From an uncultured bacterium (lineage in GTDB: Bacteria > Hydrothermota > Tepidihabitantia > Tepidihabitantales > Tepidihabitantaceae): a stretch of DNA of 31,902 nucleotides. Within the stretch, counting starts at the first letter, position 1, and each line of letters starts with the position of its first letter. The stretch is from NCBI GenBank assembly GCA_964610135.1, contig CAZSUX010000002.1, forward strand, positions 1 to 31,902, in the 5' to 3' direction. The notes under the pieces are model-generated. The model ran no database searches, had not been told where the DNA came from, and saw nothing but the letters and a program-made list of their open reading frames with translations. A program made the position numbers and the translations under genes. This document shows, piece by piece, positions 10,332 through 27,261 of the stretch.

Positions 10332-11188
10332 CCAAATACACCTACTACCCAGGCTGCACGCTCTACACCAAGGCACGGAGTCTGGACCTGTGTGCGCGCA
10401 GGGCAGCCGAGAAGGTTGGGTTCGAACTGGTCGAGATGCCGTCATGGAACTGCTGCGGGGCCATATACAACGCCACCAGCGATGACCTCGCGGCCCAGGT
10501 TGGGTCGGTGCGCAATCTGGCCAAGGCCAGCCAGTTGGGTGACAAGCTGGTCACCCTGTGCGCCGCATGCCACAACGTGCTCAAGCGGGTGCAGAACCGG
10601 CTGGACCAGCCGGGCAACGAGGTCGAAAGCGAGCGTCTGAAGACATTCGTTGACGAGAAATTCGAGCAGCCGGTCAAGGTGCTGCACTACCTCGAAGTCC
10701 TGAAGAACGACATTGGCTGGGACAAGGTCAAAGAGAAGGTCACGAAGCCGCTGGTCAAACTCAAGGTTGCGTCCTACTACGGGTGCCTGATGGTCAGGCC
10801 CAGCGAAGTGCTGGAATTCGACGACCCGGAGAATCCCCAGGTGATGGATGACCTGATACGCATTCTCGGGGCGGCGCCCACCAAGTTCGACTTCAAGGCC
10901 GAATGCTGCGGAGGGTATCTGGTCGTGAACCGTCGTGATGTGGCCAAGTCCGCGTCGCAGAGGATCCTGGACAATGCCAAGGCCTGGGGCGCGGAGGCGG
11001 TCGTTACGACCTGCCCGTTGTGCCAGTACAACCTGGACAAGTTGCGGGTGATGACCGGAGGTTCTCTGCCCGTGTTCTACTTCACGCAATTGCTCGGCAT
11101 CGCGGTCGGACTTACGCAGGACGAGCTCGGGCTGGAGCACAATGCCGGCGACCCGGTCGGATTCCTGAAAGCGAAGGGCCTGCTGTGA
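10328..11188 (+). CDS. hdrB: Heterodisulfide reductase subunit B
   Basis: Two CCG domains: YYPGC...NCCG...CAAC and YYGC...ECCGG...TTCPLCQYNL. Confidence 0.93.
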   Translation: MTKYTYYPGCTLYTKARSLDLCARRAAEKVGFELVEMPSWNCCGAIYNATSDDLAAQVGSVRNLAKASQLGDKLVTLCAACHNVLKRVQNRLDQPGNEVESERLKTFVDEKFEQPVKVLHYLEVLKNDIGWDKVKEKVTKPLVKLKVASYYGCLMVRPSEVLEFDDPENPQVMDDLIRILGAAPTKFDFKAECCGGYLVVNRRDVAKSASQRILDNAKAWGAEAVVTTCPLCQYNLDKLRVMTGGSLPVFYFTQLLGIAVGLTQDELGLEHNAGDPVGFLKAKGLL

Positions 11189-13209: not shown

Positions 13210-13215
13210 GGCACG

Positions 13216-16200
13216 ATGACCAGTGACCAGGTACCAGTGACCAGCCCCGAGCCGGCGAACGGGCCAGTCGGTGCAGTGCTGGTAGTGGGCTCGGGAATCG
13301 GCGGCATCCAGGCGGCGCTGGAACTGGGCGATGCCGGGTTCAAGGTCTACCTGCTCGACGAGGGGCCGGCCATCGGCGGCGTGATGGCGATGCTCGACAA
13401 GACCTTCCCGACCAACGACTGCTCGATGTGCATCCTGTCGCCGAAACTGGTCGGCACCGGCAGGCACCAGAACATCGAGCTCGTCAACTACAGCGAGCTC
13501 TTGAGCCTTGATGGCGAGCCCGGGCGGTTCAAGGCGAAGATTCGCCGGAAGCCGCGGTTCGTCCTCCTCGACAAGTGCACGGGTTGTATGGACTGCACCA
13601 AGGTCTGTCCGGTCGAGGTGCCGGACGAGTACAACCAGAAGCTGGCGATGCGCCGGGCGACCTATAAGCTCTACCCGCAGGCGATTCCCAATGCGGTAGC
13701 TATCGAGAAGAACGAAGGCAAGGCCCCGTGTCGGCTGGCCTGCCCATCCGGCGTCAACGCGCAGGGATACGTTGCGCTCATCTCGCAACGGAAGTTCAAG
13801 GAAGCCTACGAACTGGTGCGCGAGCGGTTGCCGTTCCCTGGCATCTGCGGTCGCGTCTGCCACCACCCGTGCGAGCAGGAGTGCAACCGCAAGGAGTACG
13901 AATCACCCGTTTCCATCCGGACCCTGAAGCGGTTCGCCGCCGACTACGTGTATTCCAACAAGATCGAATACCCCGTCATCAAAGCACCGGCAGCGGAACG
14001 CTCGGAGCAGGTCGCAGTAGTCGGGGCCGGCCCGGCCGGGCTTACCTGTGCGCTCGACCTGCGCGCCAAAGGCTACAAGGTGACCGTGTTTGATGCCACG
14101 GACAAGCCGGGCGGGATGATGCGCTGGGGCATTCCGGCGTACCGCCTGCCGCGCGAGACCCTTGACCGGGAAATCAAGGACATCACCGATACCGGCGTCG
14201 ATCTGAAGCTCAAGAGCCCGGTCAACGGGACCGCGGGCGTTCAGAACCTGCTCGGACAGGGGTTTTCTGCAGCGTTCGTCGCCCTCGGCTGCTCCAAGAG
14301 CCGGACCCTGAAGATTGACGGGATGGATCTTGATGGCGTGTTGCACGGCATCGAGTTCCTGCGCGACGTCAACGCCGGCAAGAAGCCGGCGGTCGGCAAG
14401 CGAGTCGTTGTCATCGGCGGCGGCAACGTCGCGGTTGACGTGGCGCTGTGCGCCCGACGGCTCGGCGCCGAGGACGTGACGATGACGTGCCTGGAGTGCC
14501 GCGAGGAAATGCCGGCCCACGAGTGGGAAATCTCCGACGCGACGGCCGAGGGTGTGAAGCTGAACCCCTCGTGGGGACCGCAGGCGGTTGCTGGTGAGAA
14601 CGGCAAGGTGACCGGACTCCGGACAATCGAGTGCACGCGGGTCTTCGATGACGCGCACAAGTTCAACCCGCAGTTCGGCTGCGTCGAGGGGTTTGTTCCT
14701 GCCGACACCGTTATCCTTGCCATCGGCCAGGCGGTGGATGCCGACGGGTTTGACGGGTTCGAGCGCGGACCGGGCGGTACGTTCAAGGTCAATCCGCTGA
14801 CATTTGAGACCACTCTGCCCGGTGTCTTCGCCGGCGGCGATATGGTTTCGGGACCGGCGTCGGTGATTGAGGCCGTGAATGCCGGCCACGAGGCCGCGAT
14901 TTCGATTGATCGGTTCATCAACCGGCAGGATCTGGCCGAAGGACGCGCGAAGCCGAAGGAACAGGCGGCCAAGGCCGAAGAGTCGGCAGCGGCCAGAGCG
15001 AAGATCGAGCGGCGCGAGCGTGCCGAGGAAGTTTCGTTGCCGGCAAGTGAGCGCGTCGCAGACTTCCGTGAAGTAGCGCAGGGTTTCACCGAAGAGCAGG
15101 CAGTCGCTGAGGCACAGCGCTGCCTGAACTGCGGCATCTGCTGCGAGTGCCTCCAGTGCGTCACCGCCTGCGAGGCGAAGGCAATCGACCACACGCAGAC
15201 CGCGTCCGAGGAGGAACTCGAAGTCGGTGCGGTCGTTCTTTCCGCCGGGTTCAAGGAGTACAAACCGACGGGTGAATACGGCTACGGTTACGGCCGGTAC
15301 CCGAACGTGGTGACCAGCCTCGAGTTTGAGCGCATACTCTCCGCCTCCGGGCCGTACGAAGGCCACGTGAAGCGGCCGAGCGACCTGACGCAGCCGAAGA
15401 AAGTCGCTTGGATTCAGTGTGTCGGTTCGCGCAACGCCGAGCACTACTATTGTTCGTCGGTCTGCTGCATGTACGCGACCAAGGAAGCGGTCATCGCCCG
15501 CGAGCACTGCGGCGGCAACCTCGACTGCCACGTCTACTACATGGACATGCGTTGCTTCGGCAAGGACTTTGAGAAGTATTACGACCGGGCGAAGGATGAG
15601 TACGGCGTCCAGTTCCGGCGATGCAAGGTGAGCGCGGTGCAGAGGAAGGGACAAAGGACGAGGGACGAAGGACAAAGCCCGGACGGGACCGACGAGGACC
15701 TTCTGATATCGTACGAGGATGAGGCGGGGACACTGCGCGAGGAGGAGTACGACATGGTCGTGGTCTCGACCGCGCTCGCGGCCAATCCGCGTGCGGTTGA
15801 GATGGCAAAGCGCATTGGCGTAGCCACCGACGACCAAGGGTTCGTGAAAACCGACCGGTTCGAACCGGTGCTGACCGACCGGCCCGGCGTCTACGCCTGC
15901 GGCGCGCTGGCTGAGCCGAAGGACATTCCCGAGACCGTGACCGAGGCGACCGGCGCGGCCGGCGCAGTAGCGGTTCTGCTCGCCCCGGCTCGCAACACGC
16001 TGGTCCGGCCCAAGGTGTACCCGCCGTTCCGTGACGTGTCGGGTGAGGAGCCGCGCATTGGCGTGTTTATCTGCAACTGCGGCATCAACATCGGCGGCGT
16101 GGTGAAGGTGCCGAGCGTGGTGGAGTACGCCCGCACGCTGCCGAACGTGGTTTTTGTCGACGAGAACCTTTTTACCTGCTCTCAGGACACGCAGCAGAAG

Positions 16201-17793
16201 ATCCGTACCGCTATCGAGGAACACAGGCTCAACCGCGTCGTTGTCGCGTCCTGCACGCCGCGGACGCACGAGCCGCTGTTCCAGGAAACGCTGGCCGAGG
16301 CCGGCCTGAACCCGTACTTGTTCGCGATGGCCAACATCCGTGACCAGTGCTCGTGGGTCCACATGCAGGAGCCGGACGAGGCGACCGAGAAATCGAAGGA
16401 GCTGGTTAGGATGGCGGTGGCCAACTCGCGACTGCTCCGTCCGCTCTCGTCATCGCCGCAGGCGATCGTTCAGAAGGCGCTTGTCATCGGTGGCGGGCTG
16501 GCCGGGATGACCTCGGCAATCGCGGTTGCCGACCAGGGATTTGAAACCTTCCTTGTCGAGAAGGGTGACCGACTGGGCGGCAACCTGCTCAACCTGAGAT
16601 ACACCGAGACCGGCGATGACTTGGTCAGCTACGTGGCACGGCTGGAGCAGCGGCTGAGGGCCCACCCGTTGGTGAAGGTCTTCACCGGCGCCGAGTTGAC
16701 TGCTGTCACGGGCTACGTTGGTAACTACAAAACGACGGTCCAGAGGGAAGGACAAAGGACGAAGAACGAAGGGCAGAGCCAGGACGGATCCGAGGTCATC
16801 GAACATGGCGTCTTCATCGTCGCCACCGGTGCGGAGGAGTACCGGCCGACCGAATTCCTCTACGGCAAGGACCCACGTGTCCTTACCCAGACTGAGTTTG
16901 AGCAAGTCCTCTCCGGTTCACCTTCACTTGATCCCTCGACCCCTCGACCTCTTGATCCCTCTTCTCTCAAGCACGTAGTGATGGTCCAGTGTGTCGGGTC
17001 GCGGGAGAAAGAGCATCCATGGTGTTCGCGCATTTGCTGCACCGAGGCGGTGAAGAACGCGCTCAAACTGAAGAGCATCAGCCCGAAGGCGAATGTCTAT
17101 GTTCTATATCGGGACATGCGTACCTACGGGTTCAAGGAGAAGCTGTACCGCGACGCGCGCGAGGCAGGTGTGATGTTCGTCCGATTCGACCCGGAGACGA
17201 AGCCGGAGGTGACGAGCGCCGACGGCCGGCTGCACGTGTCGGTGTACGACCCGGTACTGCAGCGCCGGCTCGGCATCAACGCCGACCTGCTGGTGCTGTC
17301 GGCCGGCGTGGTCCCGGCGAAGTCGAACCACGACATCGGGCAACTGCTCAAGGTCCCGCTCAACGAGGACGGTTTCTTCCTCGAAGCGCATATGAAACTC
17401 AGGCCGGTGGATTTCACGACCCGCGGCGTGTTCATGGCCGGCATGGCGCACAGCCCGCGCCGGATACCCGAGACCGTGGCTCAGGCGTACGCGGCCGCGG
17501 CGCGCGCCTGCTCGATAATCTCGCACAAGGAGCTTTCGACCGAGGCGGTCGTGGCCGAGGTGAACCCGCGTTGGTGTACGGGCTGCGGCATGTGCGAGGA
17601 GATTTGTCAGTACGAGGCGGTGCGGCTCAACCCCGTGACCGGTAAGTCCGAGGTGACGGCGGTGCTGTGCCAGGGCTGCGGCGCGTGCGCGGCCGCCTGT
17701 CCGTCGGAGGCGATAAAGCTCAAGGGCTTCGAGGCGAAGAATGTCATTTCGATGGTCGACGCGGCATTGGAAGGGTGTGGAATAGATGGCTAA
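13216..17793 (+). CDS. hdrA: HdrL-type large HdrA: two HdrA FAD modules plus a GltD/NfnB-like pyridine-nucleotide oxidoreductase insert
   Basis: GSGIGG and DKTFPTNDCSMC; insert CRLACP...GICGRVCHHPCEQECNR...GAGPAG...GGGNVAVD...GVFAGGD; YCSSVCCMY; internal GVFICNCG; second GGGLAG; WCSRICC; C-terminal ferredoxin. Confidence 0.9.
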   Translation: MTSDQVPVTSPEPANGPVGAVLVVGSGIGGIQAALELGDAGFKVYLLDEGPAIGGVMAMLDKTFPTNDCSMCILSPKLVGTGRHQNIELVNYSELLSLDGEPGRFKAKIRRKPRFVLLDKCTGCMDCTKVCPVEVPDEYNQKLAMRRATYKLYPQAIPNAVAIEKNEGKAPCRLACPSGVNAQGYVALISQRKFKEAYELVRERLPFPGICGRVCHHPCEQECNRKEYESPVSIRTLKRFAADYVYSNKIEYPVIKAPAAERSEQVAVVGAGPAGLTCALDLRAKGYKVTVFDATDKPGGMMRWGIPAYRLPRETLDREIKDITDTGVDLKLKSPVNGTAGVQNLLGQGFSAAFVALGCSKSRTLKIDGMDLDGVLHGIEFLRDVNAGKKPAVGKRVVVIGGGNVAVDVALCARRLGAEDVTMTCLECREEMPAHEWEISDATAEGVKLNPSWGPQAVAGENGKVTGLRTIECTRVFDDAHKFNPQFGCVEGFVPADTVILAIGQAVDADGFDGFERGPGGTFKVNPLTFETTLPGVFAGGDMVSGPASVIEAVNAGHEAAISIDRFINRQDLAEGRAKPKEQAAKAEESAAARAKIERRERAEEVSLPASERVADFREVAQGFTEEQAVAEAQRCLNCGICCECLQCVTACEAKAIDHTQTASEEELEVGAVVLSAGFKEYKPTGEYGYGYGRYPNVVTSLEFERILSASGPYEGHVKRPSDLTQPKKVAWIQCVGSRNAEHYYCSSVCCMYATKEAVIAREHCGGNLDCHVYYMDMRCFGKDFEKYYDRAKDEYGVQFRRCKVSAVQRKGQRTRDEGQSPDGTDEDLLISYEDEAGTLREEEYDMVVVSTALAANPRAVEMAKRIGVATDDQGFVKTDRFEPVLTDRPGVYACGALAEPKDIPETVTEATGAAGAVAVLLAPARNTLVRPKVYPPFRDVSGEEPRIGVFICNCGINIGGVVKVPSVVEYARTLPNVVFVDENLFTCSQDTQQKIRTAIEEHRLNRVVVASCTPRTHEPLFQETLAEAGLNPYLFAMANIRDQCSWVHMQEPDEATEKSKELVRMAVANSRLLRPLSSSPQAIVQKALVIGGGLAGMTSAIAVADQGFETFLVEKGDRLGGNLLNLRYTETGDDLVSYVARLEQRLRAHPLVKVFTGAELTAVTGYVGNYKTTVQREGQRTKNEGQSQDGSEVIEHGVFIVATGAEEYRPTEFLYGKDPRVLTQTEFEQVLSGSPSLDPSTPRPLDPSSLKHVVMVQCVGSREKEHPWCSRICCTEAVKNALKLKSISPKANVYVLYRDMRTYGFKEKLYRDAREAGVMFVRFDPETKPEVTSADGRLHVSVYDPVLQRRLGINADLLVLSAGVVPAKSNHDIGQLLKVPLNEDGFFLEAHMKLRPVDFTTRGVFMAGMAHSPRRIPETVAQAYAAAARACSIISHKELSTEAVVAEVNPRWCTGCGMCEEICQYEAVRLNPVTGKSEVTAVLCQGCGACAAACPSEAIKLKGFEAKNVISMVDAALEGCGIDG
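13217..13244. repeat. Heptamer array (4 units) forming the first codons of hdrL
   Basis: TGACCAG TGACCAG GTACCAG TGACCAG; translates as MTSDQVPVTS. Confidence 0.75.
15640..15692. repeat. 53-bp in-frame module, copy 1 (4 heptamers GGACRAR)
   Basis: CAGAGGAAG GGACAAA GGACGAG GGACGAA GGACAAA GCCCGGACGGGACCGA; peptide QRKGQRTRDEGQSPDGTD. Confidence 0.8.
16741..16793. repeat. 53-bp in-frame module, copy 2
   Basis: CAGAGGGAA GGACAAA GGACGAA GAACGAA GGGCAGA GCCAGGACGGATCCGA; 44/53 identical to 15640-15692; peptide QREGQRTKNEGQSQDGSE. Confidence 0.8.
16927..16958. repeat. Octamer array (4 units) in frame in hdrL
   Basis: CTTGATCC CTCGACCC CTCGACCT CTTGATCC; peptide LDPSTPRPLDP just before VVMVQCVG. 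Confidence 0.8.
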
Positions 17794-18208
17794 TTACGAA
17801 CCTAAGATTGTTGGATTTCTCTGCAACTGGTGCACTTATGCGGGGGCGGACCTCGCCGGCACGTCACGTATGCAGTACCCGCCGAATATGCGACCGATAC
17901 GGGTGATGTGCTCGGGTGCAGTCGACTCGGTGTACGTCCTGCGCGCCCTGCTCGAGGGCGCGGACGGTGTGTTTATTGGTGGCTGTCACCCCGGCGACTG
18001 CCACTACGTCTCGGGCAACTACAAGGCGCGGCGCCGGATGGTGCTGTTCAACTCGGTGATGCAGTCGCTCGGCCTCGAGTCCGACCGCGTCTGGCTGCGC
18101 TGGATTTCCGCGGCCGAGGGCCGGAAGTTCGCCGATACGGTTACCGAGATGACCGTCCACCTCCGCGAGAAGGGGCCGAGTGCCTTCAAAGAGAAGTGGG
18201 AAGTGTGA
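17786..18208 (+). CDS. mvhD: MvhD/FlxD-family [2Fe-2S] adaptor subunit
   Basis: FLCNWCTYAGAD, RVMCSG, GCHPGDCHY, WISAAEG. Confidence 0.92.
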   Translation: MANYEPKIVGFLCNWCTYAGADLAGTSRMQYPPNMRPIRVMCSGAVDSVYVLRALLEGADGVFIGGCHPGDCHYVSGNYKARRRMVLFNSVMQSLGLESDRVWLRWISAAEGRKFADTVTEMTVHLREKGPSAFKEKWEV

Positions 18209-18215
18209 GGGAGCG

Positions 18216-19334
18216 ATGAAGGGAACACTTAAGGTAGACGCGAAGAACCCCGAGGCGGCAATCCGCGGCCTGTTCGCGAAGTGGTTGAAGGACAGCAGGC
18301 TCTCCGCGATTCTCACGCCGGCGTATTCGGCAGCAGGCACCGCCACGATGGCGCTTGTCTCCGACCCGGAGAAGCTGGCCGAGGCCGCGCCGCTGATGCC
18401 GGCGATGGGCGTCAACTCGGCGTCAATCGTGGCCGAGATTGCCCGCGAGGCTTCCCCGAATGCGAAAGTCGGGTTGTTCCTGCGGCCGTGCGAGCTGCGG
18501 GCTGTAGTCGAGTTGATGAAGCTGAAGCAAGTAGTGCCCGACAGCCTCGTGCTCATCGGCGTTGACTGCCCGGGTACGTACAAGGCGGCCGGGTTCCGCG
18601 ACGTGCGCGGCAAGGACGCGGATTTCGACAACAAGCACGCGCTCGAACAGGCGGGCTATGCCGACAACGTGAACTTCCGGATGGGCTGCCAGCTCTGCGA
18701 GTATCCGAAGCCGCTCGTCTTCGACCTGAATGTCGGGTTCATCGGGATGGACGTCGACAAGGAGCTCTGGCTCGAGGCCGCCACTGACAAGGGCAAGGCG
18801 CTGCTCGAGGGAGTCGAACTGAAGGCGCAGGACGAACCGGAGAAGCGGAAGAAGGCGCTGGAGGGCCTGAGCGCCGGCCGGAAGGCGAAGACGGCCGCCC
18901 GTATCGAGGAACTGGACAAGGCAATGCTGGGACCGGACAAGCTCGTCGCGTACTTCGCTGACTGCCTCAACTGCCATAACTGCATGAAGGTCTGCCCGGT
19001 CTGCTATTGCCGAGAGTGCTTCTTCGATTCCGACACGTTCCAGCGCGACATCGGCGAGCACGTCCGTGTCTCCCTGCGCAAAGGCGCGACCCGGATGCCG
19101 TCCGAGACTCTTCTGTTCCATCTGACCCGTATGAACCATATGATGGCTTCGTGTGTGCAGTGCGGCATCTGCGAGGACTCGTGCCCGGTGACCATTGGCC
19201 TTGCTACTTTGTTCAAGAAGGTCTCGCAGAACGCACAGAAGGAGTTCGACTACGTGTCCGGGCGTAACCTGGATGAACCGCTGCCGCTGGCGACGTTCCG
19301 CGAGTCCGAATTCCTCAAGGTAGGGGAAGAATAG
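18216..19334 (+). CDS. FdhB/FrhB-related 4Fe-4S dicluster protein (FlxC-like paralog)
   Basis: RPCELRA, IGVDCPG, CQLCEYP, CLNCHNCMKVCPVCYCRECFF, FHLTRMNH, CVQCGICEDSCP. SD GAGGGA before ATG 18216. Confidence 0.8.
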   Translation: MKGTLKVDAKNPEAAIRGLFAKWLKDSRLSAILTPAYSAAGTATMALVSDPEKLAEAAPLMPAMGVNSASIVAEIAREASPNAKVGLFLRPCELRAVVELMKLKQVVPDSLVLIGVDCPGTYKAAGFRDVRGKDADFDNKHALEQAGYADNVNFRMGCQLCEYPKPLVFDLNVGFIGMDVDKELWLEAATDKGKALLEGVELKAQDEPEKRKKALEGLSAGRKAKTAARIEELDKAMLGPDKLVAYFADCLNCHNCMKVCPVCYCRECFFDSDTFQRDIGEHVRVSLRKGATRMPSETLLFHLTRMNHMMASCVQCGICEDSCPVTIGLATLFKKVSQNAQKEFDYVSGRNLDEPLPLATFRESEFLKVGEE

Positions 19335-19336
19335 GG

Positions 19337-20137
19337 ATGGAAGAGACAAAGGGACAAAGGGACAAAGTGGCTGGGAGTCCGACTTCTTCACTAGGTCCCT
19401 TGATTCCTCGATCCCTTGATCCCTCTTCCGCAGAACTGCTCGTCAACGACCTCGACACTGAGTTCAAGACCCGGCTGGCTGAGAAGTACGGCGACACTGG
19501 GTTCATGCACTGCTTTTCCTGCGGGTCGTGTTCGGCATCCTGCCCGGTGCGGAAGCTTGATGAGAAGTACAACCCGAGGCGCATCATCCGGATGGCGATA
19601 CTCGGTATGAAGGATGAAGTCTACAAGTCCGAGTTCGTCTGGATGTGCTCCTACCACACGACCTGCCTGAACCGCTGCCCCCAGAAGGTGAACATCGGCG
19701 AGGTGGCCGATGCGGTCTCGCGCATGGCGGAAGAGGAGCGCAAGCGGCCGGCTTCCCACAAGGGCAAGGTGACGCAGGCGGAGCGGGACCGGGACTTCAA
19801 GCAGCAGGTGATGAAGGCGGCCAGCAGCGTTTCGGCCTGTTTCACCTGCGGTTCCTGCACCGCGGTCTGCCCGGAGACGCTGTTCGACCCGGAGAAGGAC
19901 CCGCGGCGGTTCATCCGCAAGGTCAACCTCGGGTTGCGGGACGAGGCGCTGGCCGACGAATTCAAGGATATCTGCGCGATTCACTACCGCTGCATCTCGC
20001 GCTGCCCGCAGGGAGTGCAGATCAGCAAGATCATGAATGCCATCAAGCAGTGCGCAGTGGAAGATGGCCACAGCTACCCGGCGTCACTGGCGGCGCTTGA
20101 GAAAGCGGACCGGTCGAAGTCAGGTGCTAGAAGCTAG
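19337..20137 (+). CDS. Tandem (double) HdrC-like protein; second cluster motif of each domain is CxxHxxCxxxCP
   Basis: Domain 1 CFSCGSCSASCP / CSYHTTCLNRCP; domain 2 CFTCGSCTAVCP / CAIHYRCISRCP; NPRRIIR and DPRRFIR linkers as in HdrC. Confidence 0.8.
   Translation: MEETKGQRDKVAGSPTSSLGPLIPRSLDPSSAELLVNDLDTEFKTRLAEKYGDTGFMHCFSCGSCSASCPVRKLDEKYNPRRIIRMAILGMKDEVYKSEFVWMCSYHTTCLNRCPQKVNIGEVADAVSRMAEEERKRPASHKGKVTQAERDRDFKQQVMKAASSVSACFTCGSCTAVCPETLFDPEKDPRRFIRKVNLGLRDEALADEFKDICAIHYRCISRCPQGVQISKIMNAIKQCAVEDGHSYPASLAALEKADRSKSGARS
19343..19423. repeat. Imperfectly inverted pair of octamer arrays at the start of the tandem hdrC gene
   Basis: GAGACAAA GGGACAAA GGGACAAA (19343-19366), spacer, TAGGTCCC TTGATTCC TCGATCCC TTGATCCC (19392-19423). 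Confidence 0.75.
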
Positions 20138-20146
20138 AGCAAGCAC

Positions 20147-20548
20147 GTGACAGACGAAGCCAAAAGCCAAGAGCCAAAAGCCAAAAGTCAAAGCAGCGGA
20201 CCGGCTGACTTACGTGACAGGCTGCTTGATTTCGCTGCGAGTTGCTTGAAGCTTGGCGGTCGGCTGACGCGGACGACCCCGGGCCGGTATGTGGCCGGGC
20301 AGTTGATGCGTTCCAGCGCTTCTGCCGGGGCGAACTACATGGAGGCACGCGGCGCGGAGAGCCGCGCCGATTTCGTCCACAAGCTCCAGGTGGCACTCAA
20401 GGAAGCCAAGGAATCCCAGTACTGGCTCGCTCTCGTCGTCCGAGCGGAACTACTCAATCCCGGCTTTGTTCAGGTTCTGGCCGACGAAGCAGACGCTTTG
20501 GTTCGAATCCTCGCGAAGTCGGTCGTTACCGCCAAAGGACACAGATGA
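20147..20548 (+). CDS. Four-helix bundle protein (23S rRNA intervening-sequence protein / Avd-like family)
   Basis: DLRDRLLDFA...GQLMRSSASAGANYMEA...SRADFVHKLQVALKEAKESQYWL...EADALVRIL matches the family pattern QL.RS..S..AN..EA....S..DF..KL.I..KEA.E..YWL. Confidence 0.9.
   Translation: MTDEAKSQEPKAKSQSSGPADLRDRLLDFAASCLKLGGRLTRTTPGRYVAGQLMRSSASAGANYMEARGAESRADFVHKLQVALKEAKESQYWLALVVRAELLNPGFVQVLADEADALVRILAKSVVTAKGHR
20157..20191. repeat. Left heptamer array of the four-helix-bundle cassette
   Basis: AAGCCAA AAGCCAA GAGCCAA AAGCCAA AAGTCAA. Confidence 0.9.
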
Positions 20549-20553
20549 CGGTT

Positions 20554-20588
20554 TTGCGTCTTGGCTTTTGGCCTTTGGCTTTTAACTT
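20554..20588. repeat. Right (inverted) heptamer array of the four-helix-bundle cassette
   Basis: TTGCGTC TTGGCTT TTGGCCT TTGGCTT TTAACTT; TTGGCTT is the exact reverse complement of AAGCCAA. Confidence 0.9.
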
Positions 20589-20605
20589 GACTCCGGAGTT
20601 CCATC

Positions 20606-23600
20606 ATGCCTGAGCCTTCGACTGGCAAGATCGGTGCTGTATTGGTTGTCGGCGGAGGAATCGGTGGCGTGCAGTCTGCGCTCGACCTGGCCGATTCCGG
20701 CTACAAGGTCTATCTGGTTGACCGTGCACCAGCCATCGGCGGCATCATGGCGATGCTCGACAAGACCTTCCCGACCAACGACTGCTCCATGTGCATCCTC
20801 TCACCCAAGCTGGTCGCTGCCGGACGGCACAAGGACATCGAACTGATGACCCTGACCGAGGTGCTGGGAGTCGAGGGAGAGCCGGGCAACTTCAAGGTTC
20901 GGCTCAAGCGCCATGCCCGCTCAGTCGACCTGTCGAAATGCACCGGCTGCGGCGACTGCTTGACCAAGTGTCCGGTCAAAGACCTGCCGAACGAGTTTGA
21001 GGGCGGACTTTCGAATCGCCGCGCCATCTACCGTCTCTACGCGCAGGCAGTGCCGAACGCGCCGATGATTGACCGCGAGCATTGCCTGAAGTTCACCAAG
21101 GACAAGTGCGGTGCCTGCCAGAAGACGTGCAAGGCCGGCGCCATCGACTACGCTCAGCAGGATGAGGAGTTCACGGTCGAGGTCGGCTCAGTCGTGGTCG
21201 CCGCCGGCTCGAAGATAGCGCCGACCGCACTCCGGCCCGAGTACGGCCACGGCCGATACCCCAACGTCGTGTCCAGCCTCCAGTTCGAGCGGATCCTGTC
21301 TGCGTCCGGGCCATACGGCGGTCACGTCAAACGTCCGTCCGACGGCAAGGCGCCGAAGAAGGTCGCGTGGCTGCAGTGCGTCGGGTCGCGTGACGACTCA
21401 GTCGAGCGCGGTTATTGCTCGGCGATGTGCTGCATGTACGCAGTCAAAGAGGCGGTCATTACGAAGGAACACTCGAGCAATGTCGAGCCGACCGTCTTCT
21501 ACATGGACATGCGTTCGTACGGCAAGGACTTCGACAAGTACGTCGACCGGGCCGAGCAGCAGTATGGAGTCCGTCTGGTCCGCGCTCGCGTCCCGGAAAT
21601 CCGCGAGGACCCGGGTACGCACAACCTCACACTCCGCTACGCCTCGGACGGAGGCAGCTTTGCCGAGGAGTTTGAAATGGTCGTGCTCTCCTGCGGCTTC
21701 GTGCCGCCGCCCGAACTCGTGGACCTGGGCAAACGGCTCGACTTCGAGCTGGACAGATACGGGTTCGCCGCCACCGACGATTGGGCGCCCGCTCGGACGA
21801 GCCGCCCCGGCGTCAGTGTGGCCGGCAGTTTTGCCCAGCCGATGGCTATCCCGGAGACTGTGACCGGCGCGTCGGGAGCGGCCGCTGCGGCCGAGGAGAT
21901 TCTCGCGGCTGAGCGCGGCCGTTTGGTCGCAGTCAAGGAGATGGCGGCTGAGACCGACGTGCGCGGGGAGGCGCCGAGGATAGGCGTGTTCGTCTGCCAC
22001 TGCGGCATCAACATCGGCGGAGTCGTGCGCGTCCCGGAAGTCGTCGAGTTCGCCCGGACCCTGCCTCACGTGGCCTATGCCGAGGAGAACCTGTACTCAT
22101 GCTCGGGCGACACCCAGGACAAGATCAGGGACCGGATCCGCGAGCACCGGCTCAACCGGGTAGTGGTTGCTTCCTGCTCGCCTCGGACTCACGAGCCGCT
22201 GTTCCAGGCCACGGTCGCCGAGGCGGGTCTGAACCCGCACCTGTTCGCGATGACCAACATCCGCGACCAGTGCTCGTGGGTGCACATGAAGGAGCCGGAC
22301 AAGGCGACTGAGAAGTCCAAGGACCTGGTGAAGATGGCGGTCGCACGGGCCATGCGCCTGAAGGCGCTGCCCAAGGTCAAACTGCCCGTGACCAGAGCTG
22401 GATTGGTCGTCGGTGGCGGCATCGCCGGCATGACGGCGGCTCTGTCTTTGGCCGGAGAGGGATTCGATGCATTCCTGGTCGAGCAGGACAAAGAACTCGG
22501 CGGGAATGCCCGCAGCATCGCCCGTACCGTCGAGGGCGACGACGTGCAGAAGCGTTTGAAGGAACTGGCGGACAAGGTCACCAGCCATCCTCGCATCAAG
22601 ACGTTCCTCAATGCGCGCATCAAGGCGATAGACGGCTTTGTCGGCAACTACCAGACCACGCTTGAGGGTGAGGGCACCGTCCTGAAGCACGGAGTCGTGG
22701 TGGTGGCGACGGGCGCGCAATACCGCACACCGACCGAGTACTGCTACGGCCAGAGTTCTCGCATCGTGAGCCAGAAGGAACTGGAAGAGATGATCGAGGG
22801 GTCCAAGGGTCCACGGGTTGGCCTCAGCGGCCTCCGTCAGACGGCGCAGGGGGCCAGGCCTTCGGAGTCACCCGAACCCCGGAACCCCCGAACCCTGGAA
22901 CCCACCTCGCTTCGCTCGGTGGTCATGATCCAGTGCGTTGGGTCGCGCGAGGCTGACCGGCCCTACTGCTCGCGCATCTGCTGCACCGAAGCAGTGAAGA
23001 ACGCGCTGGCAATCAAGGAACTGAACCCCGAGACCGACGTCTGCGTCCTCTATCGCGACATCCGTACCTACGGCATGCGTGAGGAGTACTATCGGCAGGC
23101 GCGCGAGAAAGGTGTCGTCTTCATTCGCTTTGCGCCGGAGACCAAGCCCGATGTACGGGTCGTCGACGGCCGGCCGATTGTCACTGTCAACGACCCGATA
23201 CTGGGCCGGGAAATCGAACTTCAGCCGGATATCCTCGCGCTGTCGTCCGGAATCGTGCCGCAGTCCGGCTCCGAGGGACTGGCCCAGATGCTCAAGGTAC
23301 CGTTGAACAGCGATGGGTTTTTCCTCGAGGCCCATATGAAGCTGCGGCCGGTGGATTTCGCCACCGACGGTGTGTTCATGGCCGGGCTGTGCCACTTCCC
23401 CAAGTTCATCGACGAGGCTACTGCCCAGGCCCAGGCTGCTGCCAGCCGGGCCGCCACGATACTGTCCCGCGACACGCTCGATGCGGAAGCAACGGTAGCC
23501 AACGTGGACCCGGCCAAGTGCTCGGCCTGTCACATGTGCGAAGGGCTCTGTGCCTACCATGCCATCGAAGTGAAGGTCGTGAACGAACGCACCGGCAAGC

Positions 23601-23734
23601 AGGCCGCGGTCGTCAACGAAGCGATGTGCAAAGGCTGCGGCGCCTGCGCCGCCAACTGCCGCTCGCTGGCCATCGATATCCGCGGCTTCCAGTCCGATAA
23701 CATCAGCCGCGAAATCGCGGCGCTGCTGGACTAA
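20606..23734 (+). CDS. hdrA: HdrA-like protein with two FAD modules (no GltD insert)
   Basis: GGGIGG, DKTFPTNDCSMC, ferredoxin insert, YCSAMCCMY, internal GVFVCHCG, GGGIAG, YCSRICC, C-terminal CSACHMC/CKGCGAC; paralogous to 13216-17793. Confidence 0.92.
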   Translation: MPEPSTGKIGAVLVVGGGIGGVQSALDLADSGYKVYLVDRAPAIGGIMAMLDKTFPTNDCSMCILSPKLVAAGRHKDIELMTLTEVLGVEGEPGNFKVRLKRHARSVDLSKCTGCGDCLTKCPVKDLPNEFEGGLSNRRAIYRLYAQAVPNAPMIDREHCLKFTKDKCGACQKTCKAGAIDYAQQDEEFTVEVGSVVVAAGSKIAPTALRPEYGHGRYPNVVSSLQFERILSASGPYGGHVKRPSDGKAPKKVAWLQCVGSRDDSVERGYCSAMCCMYAVKEAVITKEHSSNVEPTVFYMDMRSYGKDFDKYVDRAEQQYGVRLVRARVPEIREDPGTHNLTLRYASDGGSFAEEFEMVVLSCGFVPPPELVDLGKRLDFELDRYGFAATDDWAPARTSRPGVSVAGSFAQPMAIPETVTGASGAAAAAEEILAAERGRLVAVKEMAAETDVRGEAPRIGVFVCHCGINIGGVVRVPEVVEFARTLPHVAYAEENLYSCSGDTQDKIRDRIREHRLNRVVVASCSPRTHEPLFQATVAEAGLNPHLFAMTNIRDQCSWVHMKEPDKATEKSKDLVKMAVARAMRLKALPKVKLPVTRAGLVVGGGIAGMTAALSLAGEGFDAFLVEQDKELGGNARSIARTVEGDDVQKRLKELADKVTSHPRIKTFLNARIKAIDGFVGNYQTTLEGEGTVLKHGVVVVATGAQYRTPTEYCYGQSSRIVSQKELEEMIEGSKGPRVGLSGLRQTAQGARPSESPEPRNPRTLEPTSLRSVVMIQCVGSREADRPYCSRICCTEAVKNALAIKELNPETDVCVLYRDIRTYGMREEYYRQAREKGVVFIRFAPETKPDVRVVDGRPIVTVNDPILGREIELQPDILALSSGIVPQSGSEGLAQMLKVPLNSDGFFLEAHMKLRPVDFATDGVFMAGLCHFPKFIDEATAQAQAAASRAATILSRDTLDAEATVANVDPAKCSACHMCEGLCAYHAIEVKVVNERTGKQAAVVNEAMCKGCGACAANCRSLAIDIRGFQSDNISREIAALLD
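22794..22902. repeat. Inverted pair of octamer arrays in frame in the third hdrA
   Basis: TCGAGGGG TCCAAGGG TCCACGGG (22794-22817), 53-nt spacer, CCCGAACC CCGGAACC CCCGAACC CTGGAACC (22871-22902). Confidence 0.8.
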
Positions 23735-23752
23735 ACGATGGGAGAATCGCAC

Positions 23753-24211
23753 ATGCCGGAAACTGCTGCGGCCGAGAAGGCAGTCGGCGGCGAATTCGAA
23801 CCCAAGATCGTGGCTTTTCTCTGCAACTGGTGTTCGTATGCCGGCGCCGACCTTGCCGGCATATCGCGCATCCAGTACCCGCCCAGCATCCGGGTCATTC
23901 GCGTTCCGTGCTCCGGTCGGGTTGACCCCTTCTATATCCTCAAGGCGCTGCAGAACGGCGCGGATGGCGTGCTCATCTCCGGCTGCCATCCCGGCGACTG
24001 CCACTACCTGACCGGAAACTATGTCGCCCGGCGCCGGTTCGCAGTCCTCAACGACCTGCTGGAGTTCGCCGGCATCGACCAGGGCCGGGTTAGCTTCTCC
24101 TGGGTTTCTGCTGCCGAAGGTGAACGGTTCGCGGAGGTCGTGCGCGACGTCACCGAGAAGGTCCGCCAACTCGGGCCGAACAAGAAGCTGCTGAGGGAGC
24201 CAATCGCGTGA
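23753..24211 (+). CDS. flxD: MvhD-like subunit of the Flx module
   Basis: FLCNWCSYAGAD, RVPCSG, GCHPGDCHY; first in the flxD-C-B-A order. SD GGAG 8 nt before ATG 23753 (alternative start 23738). Confidence 0.88.
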   Translation: MPETAAAEKAVGGEFEPKIVAFLCNWCSYAGADLAGISRIQYPPSIRVIRVPCSGRVDPFYILKALQNGADGVLISGCHPGDCHYLTGNYVARRRFAVLNDLLEFAGIDQGRVSFSWVSAAEGERFAEVVRDVTEKVRQLGPNKKLLREPIA

Positions 24212-25047
24212 GCCGCGAAGACCAACTCCGCAAGCGGGCCACGGAGTTGCTGGCGGGCAAGGAAGTCGTGATGGTTCTCGGCTATCGTGCGGGCAAGCGT
24301 CCCGGCACGGCCACACCCGCATTCGTCACCCGGCCGGAAGACGTCGATACGCTCATCTTCGACGACCGCTGCGGCCCCAACCTCGCCGCCTACCTTCCGC
24401 GCGTCAAGCACCGGGGCAAGATTGCCATCGTTGCCAAAGGCTGTGATTCGCGCTCAATCGTCTCCCTGCTCAAGGAGAAACAGGTTGACCGCGGGCAACT
24501 AGTGATTCTCGGAGTCGGCTGTGAAGGCGTGAAAGAGAACGGCCGCCTCAGCGATTCCTGCACGACCTGCGCTCACCCGAACCCGGTAATCTGCGACGAG
24601 ATGATAGGGGAGAAGGTGGCCGAGCGCGAGCCCGCTCCCAACCCGCTGGCCGACTTTGAGAAGCTCTCGCCGGACCAGCGCTGGCAGGCATTGATGGACG
24701 ACGTCTCGCGCTGCATCCGCTGCTATGCCTGCCGCCAGGTCTGCCCGAACTGCTATTGCCCTACCTGCTTTGTCGACGCCAACAGCCCGCAGTGGGTCGG
24801 CAAGACCACAGCCGGTTCGGACAACATGATGTTCCATCTGATGCGGGCGATGCACATGGCCGGTCGCTGCGTGGAGTGCGGTTCCTGCAGTCGCGGGTGC
24901 CCGATGGGTATCGACCTGATGAAGTTCAACCGTAAGGTGGCACATGTCGTGAAGGAGCGGTTCGGCGCTGTCGCGGGGTTGAATCCCGACGAACCACCGG
25001 CGCTTGCTGCCTTCGACCCGAACGACAAACAGGAGTTCATACGCTGA
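24208..25047 (+). CDS. flxC: 4Fe-4S dicluster protein FlxC
   Basis: KGCDSRS, CIRCYACRQVCPNCYCPTCF, FHLMRAMHMAGRCVECGSCSRGCP; gene order. Confidence 0.82.
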   Translation: MSREDQLRKRATELLAGKEVVMVLGYRAGKRPGTATPAFVTRPEDVDTLIFDDRCGPNLAAYLPRVKHRGKIAIVAKGCDSRSIVSLLKEKQVDRGQLVILGVGCEGVKENGRLSDSCTTCAHPNPVICDEMIGEKVAEREPAPNPLADFEKLSPDQRWQALMDDVSRCIRCYACRQVCPNCYCPTCFVDANSPQWVGKTTAGSDNMMFHLMRAMHMAGRCVECGSCSRGCPMGIDLMKFNRKVAHVVKERFGAVAGLNPDEPPALAAFDPNDKQEFIR

Positions 25048-25048
25048 C

Positions 25049-25116
25049 CATTGTAGATTGCGGATTGCAGATGGCAGATGGCAGAGTTCGGCGGCCGGCG
25101 TCTGGCGTTTGGAGCT
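25049..25116. repeat. Heptamer arrays filling the flxC-flxB intergenic gap
   Basis: CATTGTA GATTGCG GATTGCA GATGGCA GATGGCA (25049-25083), then CGGCGTC TGGCGTT TGGAGCT (25096-25116), which are only weakly complementary to the first array. Confidence 0.7.
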
Positions 25117-25120
25117 ACCC

Positions 25121-26140
25121 ATGACCCAACGCATCGTGACCGCCGCCGACCTCGACAGACTCGTGGCCGGCTGGACCAAGAGTGCCGTGGTCTACGCCCC
25201 GGTCAAGGTCAAAGACTGGACCGAGTTCCGCCGGGTTTCGTCATTGGCCGAAGCCGACTTCACCCAGGTGAACACCAAACTTTCCGCCCGGGGTCTTCTG
25301 TTCCCGCAGTGCGAGACCATGTTCCGGTTTGAGACAAGCCGGCCGGACAAGGCGGAGGAAGCCGACCAGCCTGAGGCGCAGGTCATCCTTGGCGTCCGTC
25401 CCTGCGACGCCGCGGGTATCGCCGTGCTCGACAAGTTCTTTGCCGGCCAGGGTGAGACCGATACCTTCTACCGGCGACGCCGTGAGAAGACGACGCTGGT
25501 TGGCCTAGCCTGCTCCGCTCCGGCCGACACCTGCTTCTGCTCTGCGGTCGGCGGCTCGCCGGCCGGAACGCGCGGGCTCGACCTCCTGCTCACCGACCTT
25601 GGCGGCCGTTACCTGGCCGAGCCGCTTACCGACAACGGCGAGGCGGCAGTGAAGGACTTGCCTGAGGCCGCTTCTGCCGACCTCGCGAAGAAGAAGGAAA
25701 TCGCTGACAAAGCCGCCGCTGCCATGGCCCAGCGCATCGATACCGGCAAGCTCAAGCAGTTGCTTGACTCGGCCGACAGCCATCCGGTGTGGGAAGACCT
25801 CAGTCTCGCCTGCGTCAATTGCGGTGCCTGCACCTTCGTCTGTCCCACCTGCCACTGCTTCGACATCACGGACGAGACGCGCAAAGGCAAAGGCGCCCGC
25901 CTTCGTGTCTGGGACACCTGCCAGTTCTGTCTCTACTCGCAGCACGCCTCCGGCCATAACCCGCGCCAGACCCATGTCTCTCGTTTCCGCAACCGGGCGA
26001 TGGACAAGTTCAAGTACACTGTCGATATGATTGGCGAAGTCTCGTGCGTCGGCTGCGGACGATGCGTTCGCGAGTGCCCGGAATCTATCGACATTCGCGA
26101 GACAGTCGAGACACTGATGACCGTGCTGCCGGAGAAATAG
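25121..26140 (+). CDS. flxB: AsrA/sulfhydrogenase-beta-like 4Fe-4S protein FlxB
   Basis: GVRPCDAAG, CFC...GGSP, CVNCGACTFVCPTCHCF, RVWDTC, CVGCGRCVRECP. Start ATG 25121. Confidence 0.85.
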   Translation: MTQRIVTAADLDRLVAGWTKSAVVYAPVKVKDWTEFRRVSSLAEADFTQVNTKLSARGLLFPQCETMFRFETSRPDKAEEADQPEAQVILGVRPCDAAGIAVLDKFFAGQGETDTFYRRRREKTTLVGLACSAPADTCFCSAVGGSPAGTRGLDLLLTDLGGRYLAEPLTDNGEAAVKDLPEAASADLAKKKEIADKAAAAMAQRIDTGKLKQLLDSADSHPVWEDLSLACVNCGACTFVCPTCHCFDITDETRKGKGARLRVWDTCQFCLYSQHASGHNPRQTHVSRFRNRAMDKFKYTVDMIGEVSCVGCGRCVRECPESIDIRETVETLMTVLPEK

Positions 26141-26983
26141 ATGGCGCGAAATCCATACGAGCCGATTTCAGTCAGAGTTGAGAAGGTCACCGTCGAGAAC
26201 GAGGCAAAGGACCTCAAGACCTTCGACCTTGCATTCACTGATCCCGAAGCGCGCAAGGCGTTCGACTTCACTCCCGGCCAGTTCGGGTTCCTCTCAATGA
26301 TGGGCGTTGGCGAGGCGCCGTTCGGCATCGCCTCGGCCCCATCCGAGGAACTGGTCAAGTACACGGTCAAGCGTGTCGGCAGCTTTACGACTTCGCTCCA
26401 CGAACTTGAGCCGGGCGCGGCCATCGGTATGCGCGGCCCCTGGGGTAACTCCTACCCGTTCGACCGGATGAAGGGGAAGGACATCGTCATCGTCTCCGGC
26501 GGCTTCTCGTTCACGACGCTGCGCTCGACCATTGTCTACCTCCTCGACCCAGCCCGCCGGTCCCAGTTCGGCAAGGTCACCGTGGTCTACGGTGCCCGTT
26601 CAGCGGGTGAGTTGCTCTACAAGGACGAGATCAAAGCGTGGGAGCTGAGTCCGGACCTTGCCCTGCATCTCTGCGTGGACCGGCTCGCCGGCGCATCCTG
26701 GCCCAAGACCGAAGGCCTTGTTCCGAACGTGCTCCAGCAGGTCGCGCCGTCGGCTGCGAATGCGGTTGCGCTCGTCTGCGGCCCGCCCGTCATGATTCGC
26801 TTCACCCATCCGGTTCTGGAGAAGCTCGGGTTCAAGCCTGAAGACGTTTTCCTTTCGCTTGAGAATCGAATGAAGTGCGGCATCGGCAAGTGCGGCCACT
26901 GCAACATCGGTCCCAAGTACGTCTGCAAAGACGGACCGGTTTTCAGCTACCAGGAGCTGCTCCGACTCCCGCCGGAGTACTAG
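26141..26983 (+). CDS. flxA: FAD/NAD(P)-binding oxidoreductase FlxA (AsrB / hydrogenase-gamma-like)
   Basis: FTPGQF, GEAPFGIAS, RGPWGN, SGGFS, YGARS, VCGPPVM, MKCGIGKCGHC...VCKDGPVF ([2Fe-2S]). Confidence 0.88.
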   Translation: MARNPYEPISVRVEKVTVENEAKDLKTFDLAFTDPEARKAFDFTPGQFGFLSMMGVGEAPFGIASAPSEELVKYTVKRVGSFTTSLHELEPGAAIGMRGPWGNSYPFDRMKGKDIVIVSGGFSFTTLRSTIVYLLDPARRSQFGKVTVVYGARSAGELLYKDEIKAWELSPDLALHLCVDRLAGASWPKTEGLVPNVLQQVAPSAANAVALVCGPPVMIRFTHPVLEKLGFKPEDVFLSLENRMKCGIGKCGHCNIGPKYVCKDGPVFSYQELLRLPPEY

Positions 26984-26993
26984 CCCTCCTGCG

Positions 26994-27245
26994 ATGTTGA
27001 CCGGCGCGCACTGGACAACCGCAAGGCTCGGTGATTGTCATCCCGGTGACTGTTGCTACAAGCGCATCGAGGTGCTTCGGGCGCTGATGAAGCAGCTCGG
27101 GGTCGAGGAGGCCCGGCTGCGCCTCGAGTGGATTCCGGTGGCCGAGGGCGTGGAGTTCGCCCGGGTCGTGCGCGACTACACCGAAGAGATACGGAAGCTG
27201 GGCCCGCTCGAGCTGAGGCGGGTCGCGATCGAGGACGAGACCTAG
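26994..27245 (+). pseudogene. mvhD: Truncated, degenerate mvhD relic
   Basis: Only the C-terminal half remains: DCHPGDCCYKRIEVL...RLRLEWIPVAEGVEFA. The FxCNWC and RVxCSG ligand segments are absent, and about 8 codons (GNYKAR region) are missing relative to the two intact paralogs. Confidence 0.75.
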
Positions 27246-27261
27246 GACGCATGGAGGTAAT

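Follow-up and report, generated by a model that had tools for sequence, protein, structure and literature searches.

The gene at positions 20147–20548 of a 31,902-nucleotide stretch of contig CAZSUX010000002.1 (assembly GCA_964610135.1 of an uncultured Hydrothermota bacterium; the whole stretch is referred to as the window) encodes a small four-helix-bundle protein of the family PF05635/TIGR02436 and is associated with two inverted arrays of tandem heptamers. This cassette is a member of a large class of cassettes of ca. 420–560 nt, in which a PF05635 gene lies between inverted arrays of four to six heptamers. We propose that such cassettes, inserted between co-directional genes of operons, are the mRNA-operon counterpart of those intervening sequences (IVSs) of 23S rRNA which carry an open reading frame (ORF). 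In its combined form, including pairing of the two arrays (arms) and their recognition by the encoded protein, we judge this account to be evenly poised between right and wrong. The parts of the cassette in the window are:

20147–20548, forward strand: PF05635/TIGR02436 gene of 133 amino acids, with a GTG start at 20147 and a TGA stop at 20546–20548, beginning MTDEAKSQEPKAKSQ
20157–20192, forward strand: left arm of five tandem heptamers of the AAGCCAA type (GCCAAAA in the register of the family), within the 5′ end of the ORF
20553–20588, forward strand: right arm of about five heptamers of the TTTGGCT type, the reverse complement of the left arm, non-coding

Read directly, the left array consists of the units AAGCCAA, AAGCCAA, GAGCCAA, AAGCCAA and AAGTCAA, which encode codons 4–15 of the cassette ORF, and the right array, with its onset 5 nt past the stop codon, of TTTGCGT, CTTGGCT, TTTGGCC, TTTGGCT and TTTAACT. 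Tandem Repeats Finder assigned a period of 7 to both, the left array having 5.1 copies and the right one 3.3 clean copies plus two degenerate units. According to a repeat search, the arms comprise 36 nt each, are 81% complementary and enclose 360 nt, the whole cassette extending over 432 nt. The 13-mer AGCCAAAAGCCAA has seven matches with at most two mismatches, all within the two arms (expected 0.48; none of 100 shuffles reached seven), and the arm motif is confined to the cassette within the 32-kb window. The cassette sits within a 19.8-kb Hdr/Mvh/hydrogenase operon, as a Pfam scan of the large ORFs in 9936–29702 indicated hdrC, hdrB, HdrA-like flavoproteins, two mvhD, Fe-S proteins, an FAD/NAD protein and a NiFe hydrogenase. 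The preliminary description of this DNA, made from the letters alone, had proposed a gene between inverted heptamer arrays inside an Hdr operon, which direct reading, Tandem Repeats Finder and the 13-mer count confirm. It had also seen no transposase or reverse transcriptase in the window; no reverse transcriptase, transposase or integrase was detected among the 21 large ORFs Pfam-scanned in 9936–29702 (a 325-amino-acid ORF at 27262–28239 lay outside the scan).

The same architecture recurs throughout the gene family. Screening one genome per species yielded 418 relatives, and the best 80 of these 418 (45–99% identity) were used as the locus set. It spans more than ten phyla, including lineages of WOR-3, Chloroflexota, Acidobacteriota, Planctomycetota, Nitrospirota, Thermodesulfobacteriota, Betaproteobacteria, Bacteroidota, Elusimicrobiota, Armatimonadota, Bacillota and others; one locus (L004, from a metagenome-assembled genome, MAG) is 99–100% identical to the window. 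After L004, the nearest relatives belong to WOR-3, which makes this the probable lineage of the window as well. When the 5′ flank of each gene was aligned to the reverse complement of its 3′ flank, the inverted-repeat score exceeded the best of 30 shuffles in 76 of 79 loci (median 40 versus 17), and a tandem period of 7 prevailed in 66 of 79 left and 64 of 79 right arms. The density of tandem arrays is 4.04 per kb in the flanks of the cassettes compared to 0.43 per kb elsewhere in the same loci, a 9-fold enrichment, and 129 of the 135 flank arrays have a period of 7 or a multiple thereof. The heptamer consensus is nKCAAAA on one side and TTTTGMn on the other, with A at positions 4–7 in 41–48 of 50 loci. 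The unit itself varies from locus to locus (GCCAAAA, TGCAAAA, GGCAAAA, GTCAAAA, ATGAAAA, TGCAGAT, ACCGAGA, GCTAGAA), and within any one locus both arms always match each other. Median lengths are 39 nt for the arm, 393 nt for the loop and 483 nt for the element.

Distant homologues (28–45% identity) on complete plasmids of cultured organisms display the same layout, often perfectly. The arms are (TTCAAAA)4 and (TTTTGAA)4 in Nostoc flagelliforme and (GTCGGAG)4 and (CTCCGAC)4-5 in Nostoc punctiforme; the simple gene-between-arrays layout is also found in Dolichospermum, Gloeocapsa and Monoglobus, a hairpin-gene-hairpin variant in Planktothrix and Chlorohelix, and flanking arrays of the TAACTGA type in Chondrinema. 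The expectation that homologous genes possess inverted 7-mer arrays of their own is thereby borne out, both by the 76 of 79 loci and by complete genomes of cultured organisms. No heptamer arrays were present at the two phage-borne homologues examined, which indicates that the arrays belong to the operon-borne members and not to every PF05635 gene.

Heptamer arrays also exist apart from the gene. In 75 related loci (ca. 400 kb), 228 arrays of period 7 or 14 were counted, namely 139 flanking four-helix-bundle ORFs, 30 gene-less inverted pairs and 59 solo arrays, and period 7 is the prevailing tandem-repeat period in these related genomes also away from the cassettes. The first 50 kb of the Nostoc flagelliforme plasmid pNFSY05 contain at least ten other heptamer arrays, each with its own unit (e.g. 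TAATTCG, AACAGTT/ACTGATA, TGCGAAT, AAGGGGA, AAAGGTT/CTTTCCC, CCCTGCT), several of them gene-less inverted pairs beside gene ends. A simple regulon of identical gene-less arrays was considered and is not supported, because the heptamer of the cassette recurs neither elsewhere in the 32-kb window nor, in the case of the Nostoc cassette, elsewhere in the 50 kb of its plasmid. The Treponema saccharophilum plasmid pTS1 carries ca. 40 heptamers of the AAAGNGG type followed by their inverse (1191–1518) upstream of a four-helix-bundle gene and an additional inverted array 3′ of its stop codon. Outside the window, contigs of four DNA sequencing runs (X1, X2, X4, X7) match only the left array (20153–20194, ca. 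40 nt, 2–3 mismatches) and then diverge, so that the AAGCCAA array is present in other sequence contexts of these communities.

The identification of the encoded protein as a four-helix bundle related to IVS-encoded and Avd proteins is upheld by profile scores, a structural model and fold comparison. The protein scores 52.7 bits against PF05635 (cut-off 33.8) and 68.3 bits against TIGR02436 (cut-off 24), and the subfamily amounts to 1302 cluster representatives at E ≤ 1e-5. The AlphaFold2 (AF2) monomer model (pLDDT 87.8) contains four helices spanning residues 22–131, preceded by a tail (residues 1–19) which is encoded by the left array and predicted to be disordered. A Foldseek search with this model retrieved 2RLD (TM 0.91, E = 4e-7) and 2GSC (TM 0.85), both structures of the “S23 ribosomal protein family”, as well as Avd (4DWL, TM 0.80). 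The sequence match to 2RLD, an entry with five chains, has an E-value of 4e-17, and a profile search of the PDB sequences reached neither Avd nor 2GSC; on the basis of the predicted model, the kinship to Avd is visible by fold only. A homopentameric toroid was described for the Xanthomonas S23p (PMC4990558).

Both the protein and its flanking arms are constrained. Compared with its orthologues, the protein core has a dN/dS of 0.05–0.14 at a dS of 0.9–2.5, whereas dS in the array-encoded tail is 0.5–0.8 (1.4 in one comparison). Among 15 orthologues, pairwise identity is 0.49 at third positions of the core, whereas the left arm reaches 0.85 (0.90 at its third codon positions) and the right arm 0.81, with a drop to 0.53 in the 20 nt past the right arm; both arms are conserved about as strongly as first and second codon positions. 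As the arms are 81–85% identical compared to 49% at synonymous sites, their sequences must be under selection. Purifying selection thus acts on the core of the protein as well as on the sequences of both arms. In several orthologues of the window's cassette kind (termed type 1; loci L001 (10405–10447 and 10505–10547), L087, L102, L104, L105) the right arm plus a spacer of ca. 60 nt is tandemly duplicated, the interval between the cores of the flanking genes being 622–651 nt instead of 517–552 nt.

The immediate surroundings of the cassette comprise the following features, where type 2 denotes a second cassette kind found at the same junction in relatives:

19337–20137, forward strand: upstream flanking gene, a two-[4Fe-4S]-dicluster protein of the Hdr/Mvh operon (Pfam scan; orthologues)
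20606–23734, forward strand: downstream flanking gene, an HdrA-like flavoprotein of 1042 amino acids (Pfam scan)
20114–20146, forward strand: relic of a type-2 left arm, GAAGTCA GGTGCTA GAAGCTA GAGCAAG ..., in phase with the type-1 array
20110–20125, forward strand: 5′ strand of an outer helix, CCGGTCGAAGTCAGGT, pairing with 20608–20625, in the last codons of the upstream gene
20593–20608, forward strand: ribosome-binding site CCGGAG and ATG of the downstream gene, directly 3′ of the right arm
20608–20625, forward strand: 3′ strand of the outer helix, GCCTGA..CTTCGACTGG, formed by the last start-codon base and the first codons of the downstream HdrA-like gene

The type-2 relic supplies the final codons and the stop of the upstream gene. 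As an RNA duplex the two arms of the cassette have a predicted energy of −35.1 kcal/mol (z = −5.7 against a shuffled right arm), and the best of 5271 other 36-mers in the window pairs at only −27.2 kcal/mol. The stem of ca. 35 bp postulated in the preliminary description can therefore be formed, albeit as an imperfect one, given 36-nt arms of 81% complementarity. The outer helix 20110–20125/20608–20625 comprises 16 bp with a 2-nt bulge and has a pair probability of 0.71 in a 551-nt fold.

In related loci the cassettes follow the direction of their host operons. In 57 of 66 loci the next gene downstream has the same orientation as the cassette gene (p = 1e-9), and in 46 of 64 loci this holds for the next gene upstream (p = 6e-4); as a rule, one arm adjoins the stop codon of its neighbour and the other arm the start codon. 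The junctions occupied in annotated records are diverse and include RND adaptor/permease, hsdS/hsdR of type I restriction-modification (R-M), helicase/methyltransferase, KAS III/peptidase, a position upstream of xisH-xisI, and DUF1156/Swt1-HEPN. This insertion into unrelated operons suggests a passenger dependent on host transcription rather than a subunit of any one system. A search of the 80 related loci for 23S rRNA motifs gave only chance matches. A scan of 19800–20800 revealed neither a sigma-70 promoter nor an intrinsic terminator, Rfam gave no match in the window at gathering or E-value thresholds, and the PADLOC defence models gave none either. Gloeocapsa PCC 7428 and Ca. Chlorohelix (Chloroflexota) share a cassette at the same junction between DUF1156 and a Swt1-family HEPN gene, where either the whole operon was transferred together with the cassette or the junction was targeted twice.

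The occupancy of the hdr junction was surveyed in 45 orthologous operons, retrieved by a metagenome scan with the upstream Fe-S protein, plus the genome loci. At least 12 loci have an empty junction: in ten of them (L092, L095, L097, L098, L107, L112, L113, L117, L119, L121) the flanking genes overlap as GTGGATGA, and in two (L099, L100) the otherwise empty junction holds a solo (TGACCAA)4 array. The junction is filled with a type-1 cassette in about 21 loci, with a type-2 cassette in 11, mostly WOR-3 (protein ca. 50% identical to type 1, arms built of GAAGTCA/GAAGCTA heptamers), and with a gene-less hairpin of inverted octamer arrays in one (L110). The flanking genes are 62–100% identical to those of the window across these states (78–100% in filled loci), and relatives with 88–92% identical flanking genes do not carry the cassette gene. 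A neighbour-joining tree of the upstream protein, built from this one short protein and without support values, intermingles the junction states and has only empty junctions in its outgroups. A type-2 left arm directly upstream of the type-1 cassette has been retained in the window, L001, L089 and L109, as comparison with the type-2 arms of L031, L016, L020 and L024 indicates. Moreover, L005 contains a 78%-identical cassette with the same AAGCCAA arrays at another operon junction, equivalent to 13209/13216 of the window, where the window itself holds only a solo (TGACCAG)4 array; every junction involved precedes an HdrA-type N-terminus.

The four junction states and the second site in L005 imply that the cassette was gained, lost, replaced and moved over evolutionary time, and the suggestion that orthologous hdr operons would include both empty and filled sites proved correct. 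At the same time, type-1 homologues down to 67% identity all reside at the hdr junction, which points to long residence. No convincing target-site duplication was seen at the borders; type-1 loci have a weak repeat in direct orientation, RTGMCTGAC, where the cassette and downstream ORFs start, and type 2 lacks it. Paralogues within one MAG are only ca. 56% identical (L004 versus L014). A non-autonomous mobile cassette, as considered in the preliminary description, is thus plausible as far as two occupied junctions and several site states are concerned, although a mobility enzyme, target-site duplications and recent copies were not found.

The exact sequence of the window is present in lake metatranscriptomes. 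In seven runs, contigs 99–100% identical to the window cover 20090–20591 at a depth of 4–8, and in X24–X27 the flanking hdr genes reach no or little depth. One RNA contig (19789–20542) enters from the upstream gene; none of the cassette contigs continues into the downstream gene. DNA runs have an even depth and yield contigs across both arms, so that the RNA pattern is not due to an assembly effect of the repeats. These data support co-transcription of the cassette with the upstream gene and, for one population, the existence of a separate cassette RNA of higher abundance.

Among known systems, the ORF-bearing 23S rRNA IVS, known from Coxiella burnetii, Leptospira and Brucella, is the closest one. 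In Coxiella, its length is 428 nt, the S23p ORF lies in the loop of a 28-bp stem formed by terminal repeats, and RNase III excises the element (PMC4990558). The cassette of the window shares with it the protein family (S23p/PF05635), the size (432 versus 428 nt), the position of the ORF in the loop of a terminal-inverted-repeat stem, the sporadic presence among relatives and the dependence on host transcription. In contrast, the host transcript of the cassette is a protein-coding operon, and the site is a cistron junction and not an rRNA helix tip, the 23S helices that define an IVS being 9, 25 or 45. The arms of the cassette consist of tandem heptamers with a conserved unit, a make-up which the stems of rRNA IVSs may or may not share. 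Since a stem of this size is cut by RNase III in Coxiella, the cassette stem may, by analogy, be subject to an IVS-type processing by RNase III.

The arms likewise correspond to the short tandemly repeated repetitive (STRR) heptamers of filamentous cyanobacteria, which are 7-bp tandem repeats forming hairpins between genes such as hupS-hupL and for which a role in transcript stability or translational coupling was proposed (PMC2670836). The cassette arms are, in the same manner, hairpin-forming tandem 7-bp units in intergenic parts of operons, and the cassettes of Nostoc, Dolichospermum and Planktothrix are flanked by exactly such arrays; they differ in that they bracket a gene, occur far outside the cyanobacteria, to which the window host does not belong, and share a consensus unit within the subfamily. 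STRRs are also reported to occur inside the RNase P RNA gene. A further parallel are the TAACTGA direct heptamers upstream of start codons in Beggiatoaceae, cyanobacteria and Bacteroidetes, for which a post-transcriptional role was proposed (MacGregor 2015, PMC4679880; four-helix-bundle or S23 proteins are not mentioned there). The arrays studied here, too, are tandem heptamers just 5′ of start codons; the Chondrinema cassette is flanked by arrays of this very type, and the window has solo arrays at the gene starts 13217 and 25050. The TAACTGA repeats differ in being direct, of one sequence and without a known partner protein. In the literature searched, which left out most subscription journals, no link of STRR or other heptamer repeats to PF05635 and no such mRNA-operon cassettes were found.

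PF05635 is the commonest Pfam family beside the reverse transcriptases of diversity-generating retroelements (DGRs) (PMC10053308). The likeness to Avd resides in the four-helix-bundle fold (4DWL as cited above; DGR ribonucleoprotein structures 8UBE and related), and the cassette is distinguished by having no reverse transcriptase among the scanned ORFs and no template or variable repeat nearby, the only repeats around the gene being the inverted heptamer arrays. Repetitive extragenic palindromic (REP) elements and REPINs with their RAYT, and miniature inverted-repeat transposable elements (MITEs), resemble the cassettes in the single gene between inverted short repeats, the gene-less hairpins elsewhere and the intergenic position in operons. 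RAYT, however, is a transposase of the Y1 type, whereas for PF05635 we know of no catalytic activity, and REPs are copies of a single sequence dispersed in the genome, whereas each cassette site has its own heptamer variant. No target-site duplications were seen, and near-identical multiple copies as well as a transposase among the scanned ORFs of the window, as in transposons or MITEs, are missing.

Consistent with these findings, we propose a first scenario for the cassette. In the polycistronic transcript the arms would pair with each other and loop out the four-helix-bundle message, thereby placing the upstream stop codon beside the ribosome-binding site and start codon of the downstream gene. 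This geometry might render the insertion tolerable by RNase-III-type processing of the stem, as in the rRNA IVSs, and/or by preserved translational coupling. A ribosome that completes the upstream gene and then moves into the cassette ORF across the left arm could melt the outer helix and unmask the downstream start, which would restore the coupling that the empty site gets from the GTGGATGA overlap. Because both the sequence of the arms and their fixed period of 7 nt are conserved, some protein may be expected to read them. In analogy to the pentameric ring of its relatives, the encoded protein is an obvious candidate reader, with about one heptamer per subunit, as it is the only component always inherited together with the arms and four to six units fit one per subunit. 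The arms are probably recognised as sequence, and perhaps by the encoded protein.

Several observations weigh against this scenario. The minimum-free-energy fold of 20120–20610 pairs the arms, as the preliminary description had supposed, and to this extent the supposition stands; the z-score of the whole region is only −1.6, a value uninformative because the GC-rich coding loop dominates the fold. The outer helix is only partly conserved in relatives. A bias of G-U over A-C mismatches is not visible in the arms of 71 loci (67 versus 78), and in 15 type-1 orthologues covariation is not above that of shuffles, the stem being 82.6% paired with several mismatches conserved. Judging from the sequences, it is apparently the heptamer sequence of each arm, and not base pairing alone, that is selected. 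The cassette unit TTCAAAA does not recur among the other arrays in the first 50 kb of the Nostoc plasmid. Finally, the RNA contigs end at 20090–20172 on the left and 20410–20591 on the right, and, being unstranded and without true ends, define no RNase III cut; for the orthologue L085, the few thin RNA contigs from sediment and soil runs map to the flanks and leave out the cassette. Cleavage as an “mRNA intervening sequence”, as proposed in the preliminary description, would agree with the separate, more abundant cassette RNA in one strain, but the contig ends define no cleavage sites and L085 lacks such an enrichment.

An alternative explanation is a DNA-level mobile element, in which the arrays act as terminal inverted repeats of stacked binding sites used by a recombinase in trans or by the four-helix-bundle protein, the RNA stem being incidental. 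It accounts well for the three or four junction states among close relatives and their interleaving on the flanking-gene tree, for the same cassette type at the second junction of L005, for the type-2 arm left beside a type-1 cassette, and for gene-less inverted array hairpins at equivalent junctions (L110; window 19341–19424). Symmetrical mismatches of the arms are expected for a constraint at the DNA level, and the weak RTGMCTGAC repeat at the cassette and downstream ORF starts of type-1 loci may be added. The scanned ORFs of the window, however, offer no transposase, integrase or reverse transcriptase, a convincing target-site duplication is missing, and paralogues of one MAG diverged to ca. 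56% identity exclude a recent burst; the exclusive residence of type-1 cassettes down to 67% identity at the hdr site suggests long vertical inheritance, and a DNA transposon would not need to share the orientation of the host genes as strongly as the cassettes do. We regard this explanation as possible, though on the unlikely side; it is compatible with the processing and coupling scenario and partly overlaps with it.

The gene might also encode an accessory or regulatory part of the Hdr/Mvh complex, the arrays merely forming a local structure for translational coupling. Long residence at the site under purifying selection and co-transcription with the upstream gene would fit a subunit, but the gene is missing in relatives with 88–92% identical flanking genes, a cassette with a ca. 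50%-identical protein substitutes for it at the same site, and the same architecture is found in RND efflux, type I R-M, DUF1156/Swt1-HEPN, helicase/methylase and xisHI operons, which makes this assignment very improbable. Even less credible is an origin of the arrays as neutral by-products of replication slippage at junctions of heptamer-prone genomes, with the gene between two of them by chance. The 89 solo or gene-less period-7/8 arrays away from four-helix-bundle ORFs in ca. 400 kb, several of them in the window, and the change of array sequence from site to site are what slippage would produce. It does not explain the 9-fold enrichment of arrays at cassette flanks, the constant match between the two arms of each cassette, the conservation of the heptamer consensus across phyla or the arm identity of 81–85% versus 49% at synonymous sites.

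On a more general level, PF05635 proteins might be the trans-acting partners of heptamer arrays at large, i.e. of STRRs, of TAACTGA-type repeats and of those in the window, with a pentameric ring reading about five 7-nt units of single-stranded RNA or DNA. The gene with its inverted arrays would then be the “autonomous” form, the gene-less hairpins found between cistrons, within protein linkers and in structured RNAs the non-autonomous ones, and the ORF-bearing 23S IVSs a special case. We put this idea forward as a speculation which is rather unlikely to hold in full. To our knowledge, no function of the PF05635 family outside DGRs has emerged since the rRNA IVSs were described, nor do we know of any partner or function of the cyanobacterial STRR heptamers; both have been puzzles for about 30 years. 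The present data combine IVS-type proteins and heptamer repeats into one conserved operon package whose arms are under sequence-level selection, and thus into one testable system, and extend this finding to hundreds of loci in many phyla. They also bear on annotation, as N-terminal “tails” and linker inserts of neighbouring proteins are array-encoded, and a small gene that interrupts an R-M, efflux or redox operon should be interpreted as a cassette and not as a subunit. If the cassette sits harmlessly between coupled cistrons, it offers a natural design for insulated gene insertion in operons. If the generalized partnership between PF05635 proteins and arrays is true, it would constitute a new widespread protein-repeat system which shapes operon transcripts and may itself spread.

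The window contains several further arrays. Gene-less inverted octamer arrays, (AAGGGACA)x3.4 and (TCCCTTGA)x3.6, occupy 19338–19424 at the 5′ end of the ORF 19337–20137; this hairpin adds ca. 32 codons and is missing in many orthologues (e.g. L001), whose matches start at residue 33. Hairpins of this type are also present at 12780–12849 of L001 and at the hdr junction of L110, in the latter case with the downstream start codon in the loop. At 22797–22905, octamer arrays (GGGTCCAA... / ...GAACCCCG) lie in frame within the 1042-amino-acid HdrA-like ORF and encode the linker EGSKGPRVGLSG...PEPRNPRTLEP; at the corresponding position L001 contains a different octamer hairpin, and its gene is called as two overlapping ORFs of 849 and 206 amino acids. 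The solo array (TGACCAG)x4 at 13217–13244 forms the first codons (MTSDQVPVTS) of a 1525-amino-acid HdrA/GltD-like ORF. A second solo array, (ATTGCAG/ATGGCAG)x5 at 25050–25085, is located between a gene ending at 25047 and a probable start at 25122. Its heptamer is that of the left arms of four-helix-bundle cassettes in the WOR-3-like MAGs L008, L011, L013 and L040, and the array may be the relic arm of a lost cassette.

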